DNA from: Leucoraja ocellata
Lineage: Eukaryota
Length of the DNA: 64,000 nucleotides
Direction: 5' to 3'
NCBI GenBank assembly: GCA_036785375.1
Contig: JAWMAR010000002.1
Location: 15,190,001 to 15,254,000 of the forward strand
Shown here: one piece after another, positions 3,138-64,000 of the stretch
Layout of the letters: every line of letters begins with the position of its first letter
Position numbering within the stretch: the first letter of the stretch is position 1
Position numbers and translations under genes: made by a program
The notes under the pieces: generated by a model
What the model saw: only the letters and a program-made list of their open reading frames with translations
What the model was told of the DNA's origin: nothing
The model's database searches: none

Positions 3138-3253
3138 CTTTGGCCCGAAACGTTGCCTATTTCCTTCGCTCTATAGATGCTGCTGCACCCGCTGAGTTTC
3201 TCCAGCACTTTTGTCTACCTTCGATTTTCCTGCATCTGCAGTTCCTTCTTAAA
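3138..3253 (+). mobile_element. Penelope-like terminal-repeat fragment with tail, flanked by a 12-bp TSD
   Basis: Body ggcccgaaacgttgcc...gatgctgc...ctgagtttctccagca...gcatctgcagttcc. TSD cacctgagcaat at 3126-3137 and 3254-3265. Confidence 0.75.
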
Positions 3254-5467
3254 CACCTGAGCAATGAATTGTATGACTTTGTTTTTGAGGTACAGTGTAA
3301 TTCTTTGCAGAAGAACTATGCGGAAAGTATTTTCATTACACTTTGTGGTGGAGCTTTCCATTTGCTGAAGGCCATTTCAAGGCAGCCAATAAGCATTTGT
3401 AACTATAGTACATGAGTTGAATGTGTCTGCAATTTCAAAACACGATTCACCTAATGACAATGTTGGGTTATTGCATCAAAGCAAAACAGTGAAAGGAAAG
3501 CAGGACAAATCAGAGATATTTCTTTACAGGAAATATATTTTCCTACAGAATGTGTTTGATAAAGGCCCACAGTTAACAATGCCTTCTATTTATTTTCAGA
3601 CTTGTCCATTTCTGTGTTATTCTTTTTACACTTTTGACAAATTGATAAGCTGCGATGATAGGCCATAATTGGTAAAGGTCCTCCCTATCTTGTACATTAG
3701 AACAGCAGAAATGAGGCTATCCAACAGATCCAAGATGTGCTGCAAATTGGGATGAGTTACATGTCACAATTCAGCATCAACCTTAGAGACATTCCTAATG
3801 CCTTTTGACAGGTTCTTTCTAATTGGTTTCAACTAAACGTTCGCACACAAACATATGCGACTTTGTGAAAAGAAAGCTCAATAGTTCAGTCTCTTAATTG
3901 GTCAACTAACCCTTTGGTTCCCTTCCTTGGTTCTAGAATAGCCATGGTCTTTTGTTATTTTAATCTGAATAAAATATTTTGAAAGTATTCAGGTGCCCAA
4001 CATGTTCTATAAAACTTTTCCAGTTAGTCAATTGAACTGTCATAATAGCCCTGCCAGCAGTGTCTGGACATTAATTTGATTTTATCCAAAACTATTTCCA
4101 TGAATGAGGGAAACAAACAATTAGTTCTCACTCAGATATCCTTTCTTAGAAAAGTGAAGTAAAACAACAGGCACTTTTGATTGCAATTTGATTAAATTGT
4201 TTTGCAGTCAATTTTATGAATAAAAGCCATCAGCCCATTTTCTGTCATGTTAGCGCCTCTGGGAGAGGTGTACCTGATCTCTTTTCAGGGGGAGAGAGGA
4301 ACTTTTGTCATTCGTTCCCGAACTGCATCTCAGTGGAGGTGAGAATGAGGATACATGCCTGATTAAGAGCGAATAAGCCATTAAAAAAAATCCAAAAAGC
4401 TTTAGTTGTTGAGAGCTTATAATAAAAATAGACAGCAGTGAAATATGTAATAGCCCTTGTTTTATTATTCAGTGCATCAAATGTTTCTTAAATTAGCCAG
4501 GTGTATTGGCGTCAGACCTCCTGGCTACCCATCCAGCTAATCGGAATGTTTTGTCCACATTGGATGTTTTATTCCTGAAAGATGGGAGACCATGTCATCA
4601 AAATCACCCCTAGTTCATTGTCAAATCGACATTGTCATGCAAAAAGATAACAAGCAGGATAGTGCGGAAAACACAAAGAATACAGTTCTCTCCTGTCATG
4701 GTTTAACAGACATTGTATTTGATGTACATGGTATGGGAAAGCAATTGGATGAAAAGGGTGAGACTCATAGAGTCATATAATATAGAAACATGCCTCTTGG
4801 CTCATTTCATCTCGCTAACCAACAAGAACCTATCTATACTAATCTAATTTACCAGCACTTGGGCCAAAGCTTACATGCTTTTTTTCAAAATGGACACTAC
4901 CTCAGCAGATCAGAGGACTTATCAATATAGTGTGACATCATTAAGACCAGCTAAATGCAAAATATCTATACGGAACGTGCTCTACTTGTGCACATCTGTA
5001 CCTGTGGTTAACTTAGTGTAATGCAAATAATACAGCCAGTGTACACATGCCACACGCCACCTGTCACTCCCTTTTAATCTGACATACTTCTGAATTACAG
5101 CTTCAAAATGACAACCACCTGCCAAGCTTCAAAATTCCTTAACCAAACAATTATACGCTGAGTGACCTCAGCCCTTGTTAGTTTAAGAATTAGACTTTCT
5201 GGCCTTATGGAGACACTGTGTGTGCCACCTTAGCACAGTAATACGGGGTGCGTTTCATGGCACGATGCCTCTTTCCATGTGAAAAACATCATCATCCAAA
5301 CTTTGCTATGTCCCGCAGCCCTCACTTTTGCCTTGTTCCTGTACTGCTCTTTCTTCCTCTTGCAATTTTAGTTTGTTTTTGCTCGCCTGAATTCCTTTAT
5401 ATTTTCCTCAATCTTTATCTTGTATTTTCAATATTTATTTGTACTGTCTCTTGTTCCCTTTGCCTTC

Positions 5468-5640: not shown

Positions 5641-5770
5641 GATGTCTTCTCATCTATTGCACGCTCTCTCTTTTTGATGCCCAGTGGACCACATTGGTAG
5701 AGTGCAGTCAAACACTGGAAGTGCCAGGATATGCAGTAGGATAGGATTTGGGTAGCAGCCTGGATGAAGA

Positions 5771-5866
5771 TAGACACAAAATGCTGGAGTAACTCAGCGG
5801 GCCAGGCAGCATCTCTGGATAGAAGGAATGGGTGATGTTTCAGGTCGAGACTCTTCTTCAGACTGA
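5771..5866 (-). mobile_element. Penelope-like terminal repeat with degenerate hammerhead motif
   Basis: Minus strand tcagtCTGAAGAagagtctcgacctGAAAcatcacc...gatgctgcctggcccgctgagttactccagca. Confidence 0.75.
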
Positions 5867-6094
5867 GGGATTCTAAATCAGCGGTGTGTTACCGTAACCT
5901 TCTAATCCACAAAACTCCTTCAAATAAGTGAAATATCATTAAATTGGGTGTCCTTGTTCATTGAATGTGGCTGCCACCTAAACGTGCCAGTGAAAACTAT
6001 TGAAATGGAGACGTAGTTCTAGATTATAATATCATGTTTAACACTTGAAGACAAGGCCTCTTGACAGGTTAAAGGTGTTAAAGGAGCTGTAAAT

Positions 6095-6262
6095 ACCGGG
6101 AGTAGTCAGCAGGTCAGGCAACATCTGTGGAGGGAGAAACAAAAGTTACAGCTTAAAATTAGTCATTTTTCAGTCAAAGCCAAAGGCCACCTTTCCCTCT
6201 TCACAGCTGCCGCCTGACCTGTTGAATATTTCCAGTACGTTCTGTCTTGCTTTAAAATCTCC
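6095..6262. mobile_element. Old inverted pair of Penelope-like terminal repeats
   Basis: caggtcaggcaacatctgtggagggaga ... ccctcttcacagctgccgcctgacctgttgaatatttccag (diverged self-complementary arms). Confidence 0.55.
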
Positions 6263-6460
6263 AGTTACACCTGTATTATACTATTATATTTACAACACAA
6301 ATCATAGAGAATTGCTCACCTTCTAACTAGATGATTAAAGTTCTAGGTTTTTTGGCTATTGATTACACAATTGATATTTTGTACTTTTAAAATCATCTTT
6401 ATGAACTTTGTGTTTATCAAGGTGAAGGATATCAATGCTGAGAAGCTAAATATAGTTACC

Positions 6461-12545: not shown

Positions 12546-12606
12546 TAATTCATCTGCCGATCTACAACAGATCAACAGCAGATTCCGATCTCGTTGGATC
12601 TCCATT

Positions 12607-12702
12607 CTGAGAAGGGTCTTGTCCCGAAACATCTCCCATTCCACTCACTCCAGAGATGCTGCCTGTCCCGCAGAGTTACTCCAGCATTTTGTGTCTATCT
12701 TC
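12607..12702 (+). mobile_element. Penelope-like terminal repeat with degenerate hammerhead
   Basis: ctgagaagggtcttgtcccgaaacatctcccatt...gatgctgcctgtcccgcagagttactccagcattttgtgtc. Confidence 0.7.
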
Positions 12703-12780
12703 CATTCTGCATTAGTCCACTTGGGCAAAAGGTGAATTTGACGTAACAGCAAAACAAAAAAGAAAATTGCAGCACATAAG

Positions 12781-13610: not shown

Positions 13611-13844
13611 ACATCCCTGCTTTGCTTTATCACCAATGACCAAAGATATCAGCTACATTTCTCCGTCTTGTGCTCACCTGACATTTCAGAAGTCTTATTC
13701 AGCACGCTGGGTCTAATTCATATTCCATTGATGGTGAGAGTTGGGGCTGAGGGACTGAAATACACCAGGAAAGAACCAGGCACTCATTCACCTCCATTCT
13801 CCATCAGGAAATAACTAACCTGTTCACACGAAGTGTGACCAGTT

Positions 13845-13877
13845 GTCTGAAGAAGAGTCTCGACCCGAAACGTCACC
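13845..13877 (+). ncRNA. Minimal type-I hammerhead ribozyme motif in a Penelope-like terminal repeat (element about 13845-13945)
   Basis: gt-CTGAAGA-a-gagt(ctcg)accc-GAAA-c-GTC-ac: both core boxes and the GUC triplet are intact, with one mismatch in stem II. Activity untested. Confidence 0.6.
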
Positions 13878-13969
13878 CATTCCTTCTTTCCGGAGGTTGC
13901 TGTCTGTCCCGATGAGTTACTCCAGCTTTTGTCGGTCTGTCTTTGGTTAGTAGGCAAATGTGGCAGCTA

Positions 13970-14050
13970 GTTTTGTTTAGTTTGGTTTATTATCACGTGT
14001 ACCGAGGTAGAGGGAAAAGCTTTCGTTTTTCGTGCAATCCAGAAGCAAAT
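13970..14050 (-). mobile_element. Rex1-type 3' tail fragment
   Basis: tttattatcacgtgtaccgaggtag...aaaagc; same family as 35180, 42165 and 62563. Confidence 0.6.
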
Positions 14051-14896
14051 CTCAGCACGGCATGATCCCAGAAATAACGAATGAGGGTGTAGTCGGCTAA
14101 TCTGTTTTGATTGAGGACTGAATGCTGACCAGGCCCCCGAGAGAGTACCTCCCCGAAAGTCTTTTCTCTTCACCTTGACACAGAGATACACTGTGACATA
14201 TCGTCTTACTCAAAGGACTGCACATTAGTGCAGGACTGTATATCCTCAGTACAACACTAAATTGTCGGCCTGGGTCTGTTTTTTTGGCGATAATATGTGG
14301 CAGCACCTCTAAAAAAATGAACGGTCATTATTCCATGTTACAGCCATGCTTATTAGTATATCAGCACCTTCTTGTCCACAAATAAAGCACCAGCCTAGAT
14401 TATGCAGTTGAGTTTGAATTTAACCCGAAGGTTTTCAGTTTCTAATGGAAACAAACTGAGAAAGTGAAGCAGTGTACAAAACGTCCCCACTTTTACATCT
14501 TGCCTCTGTACTGTATGGGGCCTGCCCATCGATACAGAATCAGGGCTGTGAATTTCCATCCCTGCCTCTCCAGACTTGACCACCACTGAAGTTTCCAGTA
14601 TCAATGGGCAAGGGGCTCATTTAGATGAAATGAAAGGTAGAGGGAGATGGAGAGCCTTCCTGCCGACTCATGCAAGCGGGGACTTTGTTGCCCTCTGCTC
14701 TGGAAGTAGATCAATAGTTAGTTTGTGCAGATACTTGCAATCGGTACCACCACTGCACCCCTCCAACAACTCCCTCCCCTTCCATTTATAACACTAACCC
14801 CCATTGACCTTTGATATGAGGGCCAGTCACATAATTTTGTTTCTTGAGTTTAAGGGTTCCTGTCAAATCTGTGGACCATGCCCAAATAATCTCCAT

Positions 14897-15630
14897 TGAG
14901 TCATTCAGCATGGAAGCAGGCCCTTTGGCCCAACATGTCCAAGATGCCCTATCTGCACTAGTCCCATTTGCCCAATATCCCTCTGAACCTTTCCTTTCCA
15001 TATACCTGTCCGAGTTTATTTTACATGCTGATATAGTATCTCTCTCAACTACCTCCTCTGGCAGTGCCTTCCATGTACCCACCACTCTCTGAGTGAAAAA
15101 GTTGTCCCTCAGGATTGTATTAAACCTTGTCACTCTCACTTTGAACATTGTCCTCTTCTTCACCCTACCCTGGGTAAAAGACTCTTGCGCTCTTGGTAAT
15201 GTTGATCCCTGCCATTTTATCGATGGCACATTGTTACGCTTAGATCCAAATTCAGAACAAGGATTGCAAATGCTTGGCTCAAAGGAGGGGCGAGGGAAGA
15301 ATCCATGATTGAATGGCGGAGTAGACTTGATGGGCCAATTGGCCGACTCCTGCTCTTATAACTTGTGAACTAAGATGGAGGGCGGTGAGGAACCTTTACC
15401 TCCAATCCCATCTCAGACTATTTCCTGTGTAAGAGGTTGAGGGTTTCACATCGGTTCCGTCTCTTTCAAAGCAACCCAAAATCCCGTGAAGGTATGTCAG
15501 AGGTTATGGGGAGAAGGCAGGAGAATGGGGTTAGGAGGGAGAGGTAGATCAGCCATGATTGAATGGTGGAGTAGACCTGATGGGCCGAATAGGGCCTGGT
15601 TCTACTCCTATCCTTTAAGATCTTATCATG
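14897..15630. mobile_element. Cluster of CR1 3' fragments (14897-15190 minus; 15300-15375 and 15491-15630 plus)
   Basis: Minus-strand ORF containing NFFTQRVVGTWKALPEEVVE...DRYMERKG; 3'UTR cagccatgattgaatgg motifs. Confidence 0.75.
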
Positions 15631-17104: not shown

Positions 17105-17276
17105 ATCATCTTTTTCTTGTCATCTGAAACATGGAATTAATATCTGGATACAACTTTCTCGGCTTGGGATATCAATAAATTATAAAAGGTACGTGGAGGT
17201 TTAGATTATCGGTATTTTGCCAACGTGTGTAAAGGCCGAGTTGGTAACAAAAGGTGATCTAACAAAGACCGGTTTT

Positions 17277-17675
17277 GGAGGAATAACACCTCATATTTTG
17301 CTTGGCCAGCGGTATGAACATTCTCTAACTTCAAGTGACCCTTGATTTCCCCCTCTCTCTCCATCTCTCCCCCTTCCCAGTTCTCGGATCAGTCTGACTG
17401 TCTCCGACTACATTTTATCTCTGTTTGTTGTTACCTTCTCCCAGCTAACAATGATCTATCCTACATTTAATTTCCATCCACTTTGTCCCATTTTCACACC
17501 TTACACTTCCTTATCTATGCATCTCCCTCTCCCCTGACATCAGTCTGAAGAACGGTCTCGACCCAAAACATCACCCATTCCTTCTCTCCAGAGATGCTGC
17601 CTGTCCCGCTGAGTTACTCCAGCATTTTGTGTCCATCTTCGGTTTACACCAGCATCAGCAGTTCCTTCCTACATA
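17277..17675 (+). mobile_element. Penelope-like element 3' end: end of GIY-YIG ORF, 3'UTR, hammerhead-bearing terminal repeat and tail
   Basis: EE*HLIFCL..PSGMNI..SNFK* (same C-terminus as the 37749 ORF), pyrimidine-rich UTR, cagtCTGAAGAacggtctcgacccAAAAcatc at 17541, tail gcatcagcagttccttcctaca. Confidence 0.85.
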
Positions 17676-17772: not shown

Positions 17773-17864
17773 ACACAAAAAAGCTGGAGAAACTCAGCGG
17801 GTGCAGCAGCATCTATGGAGCGAAGGAAATCGGCATCGTTTCGGGCCGAAACCCTTCTTCAGAC
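17773..17864 (-). mobile_element. Penelope-like terminal repeat (second subfamily) with TSD
   Basis: Minus strand gtCTGAAGAagggt(ttcg)gcccGAAAcgat. TSD gtgttccRaaact at 17760-17772 and 17865-17877. Confidence 0.8.
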
Positions 17865-19459
17865 GTGTTCCAAAACTGTTGGGTTTCCGTGACCCAGTAC
17901 ACAAGATGGTGCCAGTGTTTTTGACTGTACAGGAGGATTCCCATTCACTGATGAGAGCTGGACATTGTAGTATAACTTGAGAAGGTACCGCCTGCTGTTC
18001 TGCCTGAGGTCAGCTGTTGCCTCCTAACTGAGTCTGTTGTCCGCCAGAATGTGTGTGTGGGTGGGAAGACAACTTTGTTATTGCTTGGATTTTATGACTT
18101 ATCCCTCCTTTCACACCTCCCCCCCACCCCACACCTCCCATTCTCAGCAGCATCGACCTTAGCCATCCAGAAGCAGGGTGATTGCTTCCCACATCTGCCC
18201 CGGACTTTCTCAGTGAGAGAGATTTGCAAGCCGTTGATTGATACACTGGTTGTATCCGTCAGATTTGTGTTGAAGGCATTTTGCTTTTCATGTAAGCTTT
18301 TATTTTCAGGTGGGTCGGGTGCCTTCTGAAAGGATACTTCACCCCAGCAAATTAAACGCTACCAATGTGGACTGATTAACTCTCCACTGCATTTGTTTTA
18401 AGTGAACCATTTTTTTGCCGATCGGGAAGGGTTTAGAAAGAAGGCAAGGCCTAGTCTGACTCCGGGAAGGTGTGAGTTTACCTGACACAGAGATGGGGTG
18501 GGTTGGGGGGTGGGGGCTATGTGGAGCTTTCCTACATAATGCACAACCCTGGCTGCTCGAAGACTGTGAGGTGTATTATATTTCCTTGGTTATTGGTGTA
18601 GATTCTAAATAAAGATAATGGGAGAGAAAAATCAACAGTAACGTTTTATTTTAGGCAACATTTCACTTGCCTTGGTGCGGGGACCGAACTGAGTTCAACA
18701 AATTCATTTTTTTCCATGAATGAAGTCAGCAATGTGGAAAGATTTTGCCTTTCAGGGCTGGATGAATGTATATCTCAGCCACACATTAAGCCGCATTAAC
18801 AGGCAGTGGAGTGCTTAATGTGGCCATTTTTCACAGGAGCCAACAGAGGAGATGATTAGCATAATTAGTACAGGCAAGCCTATACATATGGAAATGCCAA
18901 CTGCATAAATGCCAGCACCAGTGGAAATTTATGTCAAGGCTGACAGGAATCTCAGGGCTCAATAGTTTCCAGCTGTACCTCTTTGGGTCACACTGTCCTC
19001 AACCCAGCTAGGGTCTTTGGTTTCCGAATCTAAGTGTGAACCGGCTAAAGGCAGGCCGCTATCGTTGCTCTGGCTCGTAAAACAGCCAGGATCGCAGCAC
19101 TTGCCCGCACCCTTAATCACTCAACTTTGTCCCCCCTTCCTAATTTTACAAAGATCTTAATTATTTTCAATATGATCAATACCTCTCCCCCCTCCCCCAC
19201 ATTCCCCAGCCCCGGCCTTCTCTTCTCCACCCACTTTCTTTGGTTTATTTTTTTTTTATGTGGGGGCTTTGGTCTCTTGCTTTTGTTGTAGAGAATTCTT
19301 TTTCTCCCCCTGTTTGTTACAGAACATCTCTGACGGACATTCATGGTGGTGACAAAGCCTTGCATTCATTCACTGGAGGCTTGATGAGCCCAGCCTATTG
19401 GGCCTGGGGTGGAGCACACATCTGCTACTCGATTCAGGCAATGGAAAGATTTATTTTCA

Positions 19460-29606: not shown

Positions 29607-29799
29607 ACCATACTCTTAGCCATCCATGGGATTTTTTTAGGGTGGGGTGGGGGGAGGGGGGGGAAGTGTTGCATGTCCTCTTGAGATGCTGCCTGACCCA
29701 CCGAGTTACTCCAGCCAATTGCACAAGAATTTCTCAAGAAACAATTACTGTACATCCCACATTAGTAATAGGGTACCCCCCCATTTATTCCCTGTAACC

Positions 29800-30302
29800 C
29801 CCATTTCTCCCACTATCAAGTCCTCTTTCCTCTTCCCCCTGTCCCTTTCCACCCACGCTCCTTCCTCTGGCTTCGCACTTCGTGCCTCCTCTCTCCTCAC
29901 GTTACCCTTGTGGCTAAAGGGGTCAGGGGGTATGGAGAGAAGGCAGGGATGGGATACTGAGTTGGATGATCAGCCATGACCATATTGAATGGCGGTGCAG
30001 GCTCGAAGGGCCGAATGGCCTACTCCTGCACCTATTTTCTATGTTTATGTTTCTATGTTTACACCTTCTGTCTCCTTTGTCCACCTGTCAAAATCCCCCT
30101 ACCTGTATCCTCCCATCACTTGTCAGCTCTTTTCCAGTTGTCTCCCCACCCCACCCCCAATACCTGCAATCAGTCTGAAGAAGGGTCCCAACCTGAAACT
30201 TTGCCTATCCATGTCCTCTAGAGATGCTGCCTGACCCACTGAGTTACTCCAGCAATTTGTATTTTGTTGAAGAATCCAGCATCTAAAATTCCTTGTGTCT
30301 CC
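29800..30302 (+). mobile_element. Penelope-like 3'UTR plus terminal repeat, interrupted by a CR1 3' end (29905-30058)
   Basis: Pyrimidine-rich UTR, cagtCTGAAGAagggtcccaacctGAAActt at 30171, tail cagcatctaaaattcc. The CR1 tail ctattttctatgtttatgtttctatg lies inside. Confidence 0.7.

Positions 30303-34775: not shown

Positions 34776-64000
<29,225 letters not shown>

Follow-up and report, generated by a model that had tools for sequence, protein, structure and literature searches.

Hammerhead motifs in Penelope-like elements (PLEs) were described in 2014 as minimal ribozymes (min-HHRs), found as thousands of dispersed single motifs with low activity as dimers (PMC4209133). The Neptune/Nematis clade of PLEs is defined by a Zn-finger-like Cys motif between the reverse transcriptase (RT) and the endonuclease (EN) (PMC8557442), and the Penelope element of D. 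virilis has an internal promoter (PMC2377424). In PAc, a Poseidon element of Anolis carolinensis, reverse transcription starts at two internal sites, and cleavage by the ribozyme depends on the protein, while insertion can do without such cleavage (PMC11167929). Moreover, the supplements of a preprint (bioRxiv 10.64898/2026.07.22.740005) list families of one chondrichthyan and may include the repeat considered here.

This repeat was found in the window, i.e., the whole 64-kb stretch of Leucoraja ocellata DNA that was analysed. Its motif shares with the min-HHRs of metazoan PLE pseudo-LTRs (pLTRs), as given in PMC4209133, the type I order, an additional nucleotide separating positions 9 and 10.1, the G10.1-C11.1 pair and a palindromic 15.2-16.2 with no helix III; both likewise occur mostly as dispersed single motifs, ascribed in that article to truncated PLEs. 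Helix I has 2 bp here, compared to 4–5 bp in Schistosoma and 2 bp in the D. virilis variant, whereas the 4-bp helix II of the skate repeat is unlike that of the published min-HHRs (PMC4209133). Judged by its sequence, the motif is a minimal type I hammerhead of this published kind.

The parent element has the same RT, Zn-finger-like linker and C-terminal GIY-YIG domain as the EN-containing Neptune/Nematis PLEs (PMC8557442), and the same inverted truncated repeat overlapping a direct one as Pen2a_Av, in which the overlap is 15 bp (PMC3846280). With all of these it shares a one-ended tail of 30–40 bp, target-site duplications (TSDs) of ~9–18 bp and partial tandems (PMC8557442, PMC3846280); what sets the skate repeat apart from the elements in these two sources is that most insertions consist of the ends alone, 100–230 bp long, at about a million places. 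As in PAc, there are two end sites ~35–40 nt apart downstream of the hammerhead, and the copies retain an uncleaved motif; PAc, however, has been assayed in vitro and has an ORF that begins within stem II, whereas the skate element is known from sequence alone (PMC11167929). Non-LTR retrozymes are likewise short, non-coding and pLTR-related and carry a type I hammerhead, but they form head-to-tail tandems and circular RNAs with mostly canonical hammerheads (PMC7229834; 10.64898/2026.07.22.740005), while the skate repeat, with its minimal motif, is found scattered as singles and in head-to-head pairs. We regard it as the terminal repeat of a PLE carrying a minimal hammerhead, with its short copies likely being dead by-products of that element rather than a separate family (a probability of about 0.7).

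The original link to a Penelope-like element was based on one copy, reported at 17277–17675 as running directly on from the end of a GIY-YIG open reading frame. By alignment, this repeat (17275–17673) is colinear with an endonuclease-linked copy elsewhere in the genome (L015), and the continuity thus stands; what adjoins it, however, is ~21 degenerate codons and no ORF. A fragment at 37749, which had been given as the same C-terminus, does stem from the end of the same domain in a related subfamily, yet it has its own TSD, is cut early and lacks a hammerhead. The features are as follows.

17275–17338, + strand: degenerate last ~21 codons of the GIY-YIG endonuclease (alignment to L015; translation)
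17339–17542, + strand: pyrimidine-rich 3' UTR of the about 205-nt subtype (alignment; UTR spacings)
17543–17574, + strand: relic of a minimal hammerhead, with CUGAAGA at 17545–17551, the extra A and stem II at 17553–17564
17575–17640, + strand: conserved terminal stretch that reaches as far as the short class of 3' ends (loose ends; TSD-defined ends)
17641–17673, + strand: optional PLE tail of ~35 nt (loose ends; the tail enters the 5' body in L206 and L208)
37749–37913, + strand: C-terminal GIY-YIG fragment, a separate insertion with a 10-bp TSD at 37739 and 37920 and no hammerhead

The coding remnant contains an internal stop and deletions of 12 and 5 nt before its stop codon at 17336–17338. 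The predicted cut of the hammerhead lies after 17572, and the motif is mutated at 17553, 17565 (G12) and 17570, the changes in this copy being G10.1>C, G12>A and G16.2>A. Loose read ends from public sequencing runs pile up at 17633, 17640 and 17673, and no direct repeat of at least 9 bp flanks the copy. In one run (X24), whose species may differ from the skate, mates over the EN and 3' UTR (17262–17470) show a 2–4-fold direction bias, and no such bias is seen over the short unit. A 98% identical duplicate of the region lies ~163 kb before it on the same contig (L002, 15044117), and is either a segmental duplication or a haplotype copy. As for the separate fragment, it ends before its stop codon; a TSD-flanked endonuclease end devoid of the terminal repeat (37739–37929) suggests priming inside the end of the ORF.

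A profile search, based on endonuclease-linked copies and copies from the window, yielded 25 arms for the window, compared to zero for the reversed sequence. All 16 positions originally listed for the repeat were assigned to the family (16/16), and the window copies other than the focal one are listed below.

3138–3255, + strand: short single of the UUCG-loop subfamily, without CUGANGA, with tail and a 12-bp TSD
5765–5868, − strand: short single starting at ~−7
6095–6263: old fold-back remnant without hammerhead core, of which only 6182–6263 scores
7352–7548: head-to-head pair joined in stem II, with a short and a tailed end and a 16-bp TSD (7336 and 7549)
12606–12706, + strand: short single with a 9-bp flanking repeat
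13839–13974, + strand: short single with intact core and a stem II mismatch
17773–17868, − strand: short single of the UUCG-loop subfamily
29677–29720, + strand: fragment from downstream of the hammerhead
30159–30293, + strand: older-subfamily copy with core and stem II intact and ACGU lost
38322–38534: head-to-head pair overlapping at the 5' edge of the hammerhead
44451–44591, − strand: short single with tail
46473–46642: head-to-head pair, older subfamily
47021–47219: head-to-head pair, older subfamily, with a 10-bp flanking repeat (46987 and 47250)
52278–52597: head-to-head pair (52278–52444) followed by a sense copy (52471–52597)
54771–55044: head-to-head pair overlapping at the 5' edge of the hammerhead, with a short duplicated end
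59066–59181, − strand: short single with a 9-bp flanking repeat

The same profile found 222 arms in 600 kb sampled outside the window (60 stretches of 10 kb at arbitrary coordinates on large, middle and small contigs), where the repeat makes up 3.6% of the bases and arms are denser on large than on small contigs. Extrapolated to 3.44 Gb, this amounts to ~1.27 million arms (bootstrap 0.99–1.57 million). A tight pattern for the intact motif has 46,417 exact matches genome-wide and none in the control; ~4,000 motifs are given for the coelacanth and ~9,000 for Xenopus, counted by a different method (PMC4209133). The copies are mostly short and ORF-less, as had been proposed: just 20 of the 222 arms reach more than 50 nt upstream, i.e., ~9 short copies for each extended one (57 clean references of 76 were used for this).

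The link to PLE coding regions recurs elsewhere in the genome. The repeat lies downstream, on the same strand, in 28 of 30 loci selected with a piece of the RT, and a hammerhead occurs at most 500 nt past the stop in 22 of 30 that were chosen with the endonuclease protein as the sole criterion (both sets contain a few duplicated loci), which bears out the claimed tie to Penelope-like ORFs. The order of the element is RT, CxxxxCxxC linker, GIY-YIG, 3' UTR, hammerhead, ~60 nt and the optional tail, which at the 5' side of the element runs on into the body. The 76 spacings from EN to hammerhead correspond mostly to UTR lengths of ~110 and ~215 nt. RT motifs and the GIY-YIG domain are readable in the translations, and the linker that joins RT to EN was read in L063, L064, L070 and L073; this linker motif, rather than an RT tree, points to an element of the Neptune/Nematis type. 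On decayed copies, Pfam gave GIY-YIG at E=0.003 and RVT_1 at E=0.15, both under the cut-off, and nothing on short EN fragments; the PDB gave no match for the RT-EN piece, and GIY-YIG is annotated in 13–21% of the members of Atlas neighbours at 0.95–0.96.

The terminal repeat is present at both ends of the element, as in L206 (at 1908 and 4861), and one group of 48 loci contains a tandem PLE junction (a partial tandem); the loci examined included no intact full-length element or full-length ORF. This group (L218–L245 and others) represents one decayed junction together with its flanks, on small contigs (e.g., G000:C1230, C1394 and C1708) and often twice per contig, 120–155 kb apart; it probably reflects a large unit repeated in the genome or a cluster of genes. 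The 5' body holds GC-rich expanding minisatellites whose length varies between copies (L206:2800-3660, L208:3430-4500, L209:3900-5000). At the 5' end of the near-full-length copy L209 (2800–3350), about seven tandem 66-nt units correspond to the repeat segment from +20 to +86, inverted and without CUGANGA (C3 of CUGANGA being position 0 in our numbering). In L206, a splice-donor-like site at ~2068, ~35 nt past the tail, also contains a possible start codon; no splice joint matching it was present in the reads of one poly(A) run.

In its majority form, the motif reads CUGAAGA with an additional A, followed by stem II of 4 bp, GAAA, the ACGU palindrome and either C or U as position 17, and thus agrees with the predicted order of CUGANGA, extra A, stem II, GAAA, CG and UH. 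A motif descriptor gave 26 matches, compared to 0–4 in five shuffles. Stem I was 2 bp in 16 of these 26 and reached at least 4 bp in none, the third pair being A-C in most copies; the subfamilies differ in stems I and II by one-sided changes (U-A to U-G), with no notable two-sided change. While the family majority form carries a minimal hammerhead, as had been claimed of the repeat, its individual members are eroded. In the window, 14 of the 25 arms span the motif, 4 keep the core and none keeps core, stem II, ACGU and stem I together; in the sample, the motif is spanned by 116 of the 222 arms, with the core kept in 44 and everything kept in 12.

The core was expected to be better conserved than its flanks, which it is not: its non-CpG positions are 92.2% conserved, compared to 92.8% for 37 of the 47 downstream columns (the variable ones being dropped) and 88.1% for all 47. 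G12 and the centre of ACGU lie within CpGs and decay accordingly. The suggested comparison with Rfam recovered no hammerhead family, neither in the window (no match at gathering score) nor on four loci with near-intact copies (E<=10). In predicted folds of four intact copies, the catalytic form of the monomer (−2.9 to −3.5 kcal/mol) is less stable than the alternatives (−5.1 to −6.0 kcal/mol), and the same holds for a partial dimer (−12.7 to −13.3 versus −21 to −25 kcal/mol). The hammerhead may have had a role in the active parent alone, either as a dimer or assisted by the protein, its copies presumably now being in neutral decay. Selection against sense-strand hammerheads was considered and is not apparent, since 9 of 13 singles in the intron are sense.

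The ends of the copies are sharply fixed. Many copies begin at −8 to +2 (100 of the 222 sampled arms start at −15 to +4), and the 3' ends fall into two classes, at about +88 to +95 or +126 to +136. Ends at the cleavage site are rare: of the 222 arms, 6 start at +27 to +29 and 2 end at +24 to +26. It should be noted that a minor third class of 3' ends lies ~50–120 nt past the tail, inside the 5' body (L282–L311), and that a tail-to-body junction pattern has 522 matches genome-wide. Flanking repeats of at least 9 bp were found at 13 of 44 pairs (1.6% in mismatched flanks) and at 18 of 134 singles (1.9% in mismatched flanks), a few of them being neighbouring copies rather than TSDs; 15 of the 18 TSD-flanked singles start at −8 to +2. 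The claim that the units have their own TSDs thus holds in part: a direct repeat of at least 9 bp flanks 3 of 19 insertions in the window, with 2 more in a wider test, but not the rest, including the focal copy. These sharply fixed ends likely record the copying mode of the element rather than mark a new one.

Many arms are joined head to head, an arrangement that the original account had overlooked. In the window, 12 of the 25 arms form 6 such pairs, and 88 arms in the 600-kb sample form 44, compared to 6.5 by chance (maximum of 16 in 2000 simulations). Among these 50 pairs, 27 combine a short and a tailed arm, 6 have two tails, 5 are short on both sides and 12 include a truncated arm; 9 of the 11 pairs with a TSD of at least 10 bp end at +83 to +95 on one side and +126 to +136 on the other (short plus tail). 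Both arms belong to the same subfamily in 35 of 36 callable pairs (14 were not callable), and the arms diverge by 14.3% within pairs and 21.8% between pairs, which agrees with one RNA pool and also with fold-back self-priming. The junctions vary from pair to pair, with 21 of the 50 located at two palindromes, namely 12 that overlap a near-palindrome (~−5 to +3) and 9 in stem II.

By analogy with PAc, we propose that the PLE protein would nick the target and start reverse transcription inside an uncleaved RNA at either end site, and that synthesis would stop just before the hammerhead, most likely as the RNA begins there. Priming in the 5' repeat of this RNA would yield a product of 100–140 nt, the short stub. 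If both nicked strands prime, one at each site, their cDNAs could anneal at the short palindromes, so that a single target duplication would enclose a head-to-head pair. L206 and L208, both near full length, have their starts at +1 and −5 and run through the tail into the body; they share the start before the hammerhead with the short units, which would fit internal priming near the RNA 5' end followed by run-off. Eight independent body-linked groups were found, of which four start at −7 to +2, three start later and one (the 48 loci) reads through. At 30 tail-to-body junction loci, the repeat scored in 16 and not in 14; none of the 16 reaches the 3' UTR, and 12 start at +6 or later. An RNA starting just before the hammerhead, with stubs arising from priming in its 5' repeat, is to us the simplest reading. 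One poly(A) run, perhaps from another species, showed no transcript start and no place where molecules begin or end, both orientations being equal over the short unit; this speaks neither for nor against cleavage or a particular start site.

A stall at the hammerhead, or microhomology between palindromes, would produce a 5' edge of the same kind, with too few junction loci available to tell these readings apart. All copies might be made from the 3' repeat of the RNA, the edge reflecting a pause or template switch in which the enzyme falls off at a folded or bound hammerhead or the cDNAs anneal there. The palindromic pair junctions (12 of 50 at −5 to +3, 9 of 50 in stem II) fit this account, as do the 20 of 222 copies that pass the edge, and palindromes at head-to-head junctions have been interpreted as a sign of self-priming that used an antisense template (PMC3846280). 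We nevertheless find it unlikely, given that TSD-flanked singles start at −8 to +2 (15 of 18) with no need of a palindrome and that near-full-length copies run past the hammerhead on the 3' side and terminate at that on the 5' side. An RNA start at the hammerhead's front edge might also be due to a promoter in the repeat, from which a ribozyme unit of 100–135 nt would be transcribed and re-inserted alone by the Penelope protein, a proposal that we put forward as speculative and improbable. If true, it would make the short units a SINE-like parasite of the Penelope element, with about a million copies landing as two-strand-primed hairpins, and the densest natural record of Penelope integration chemistry. 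For a parasite of this type in general, with its own internal promoter and re-mobilised in trans by the PLE protein, one could cite the sharp 5' and 3' ends with TSDs far above control (13/44 and 18/134, against 1.6% and 1.9%), the nine or so short copies per extended one, the internal promoter known from D. virilis (PMC2377424) and the reported ability of solo pLTRs to act in trans (PMC3846280). Such a re-copied unit should, however, carry flank or a fixed pair junction, whereas the junctions vary between pairs; the window contains no tRNA gene, a long copy and a short one show no difference over 90 columns, and the tree, at low resolution, contains no young short-only clade, so that we consider the general case quite unlikely.

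This tree, of 119 rows, was built from 90 columns and leaves 65 of its 115 forks open, and some long copies are labelled short. Labels of short and extended copies are mixed in it, with 14 changes compared to 14.4 when shuffled (231 of 500 shuffles were as low); one clade, made up of 12 old copies, lacks long members, and a nearest-neighbour test of the labels was uninformative (77 of 119 versus a shuffled mean of 92.6). The separate non-autonomous or retrozyme-like family that had been proposed finds no support, given this mixing, the lack of tandem arrays in the window and the 600-kb sample, and the lack of an accumulation of ends at the cut site. Spread of the short units as non-LTR retrozymes, i.e., as ribozyme-cut, circularised RNAs multiplied by rolling-circle copying, is in our view very improbable. 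Retrozymes do originate from pLTRs, and their number in one chondrichthyan genome has been reported (10.64898/2026.07.22.740005); the 46,417 exact intact motifs would suit them. Yet the window holds no tandem array of the unit, the 18 same-strand neighbours in 600 kb include no regular multimer, ends do not pile up at the cut site, stem I has 2 bp and the catalytic fold is predicted to be less stable than its alternatives in both monomer and partial dimer. We therefore retain the reading of the short units as by-products of PLE copying.

Concerning the host gene, an exon at 62106–62561 (+) matches Patched in the PDB (E 9e-21), and Pfam places a Patched match at 58336–58470 (+); Atlas returned no usable match for the exon at 62106. 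From motifs that we recognise, we take 48398, 55627 and 59448 (+) and L212:2763-2930, ~7 kb before the window, to be further Patched exons, and the gene is presumably PTCH2 rather than PTCH1. Because there are exons both within the window and ~7 kb before it, the window appears to lie inside the Patched gene, and is intronic. Thus, the copies do sit in the introns of a developmental gene, as had been stated, but without any preference for such genes, since the density here (25 in 64 kb) equals that of the genome sample (222 in 600 kb). Elsewhere in the genome, a cluster of at least 6 Patched-domain (PF02460) genes with open frames of 570–616 aa occupies G000:C68:8.6-9.1 Mb. Fragments at 757–1113, 14786–15355, 38530–38800 and 57685–58128 of the window resemble what we take to be CR1/L2-type LINE ends.

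The link between hammerheads and Penelope is already known, and the finding as posed is ordinary. Our literature search found no report of this repeat family in cartilaginous fishes, and a term search of the main text of the little-skate genome paper found Penelope absent there (PMC10115646). The value of the family is one of scale, since a single vertebrate genome contains about a million insertions, with intact motifs by the tens of thousands; no paper was found that reports such a scale for hammerhead-bearing Penelope repeats in a vertebrate. Moreover, it is mechanistic, as the fixed ends, the short-plus-tailed pairs and the palindrome junctions lead to predictions on two-strand priming and on the RNA start. 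For the host, fold-back pairs would form long hairpins in pre-mRNA (predicted at −85 to −155 kcal/mol in the window), and such hairpins could matter for editing or small RNAs.
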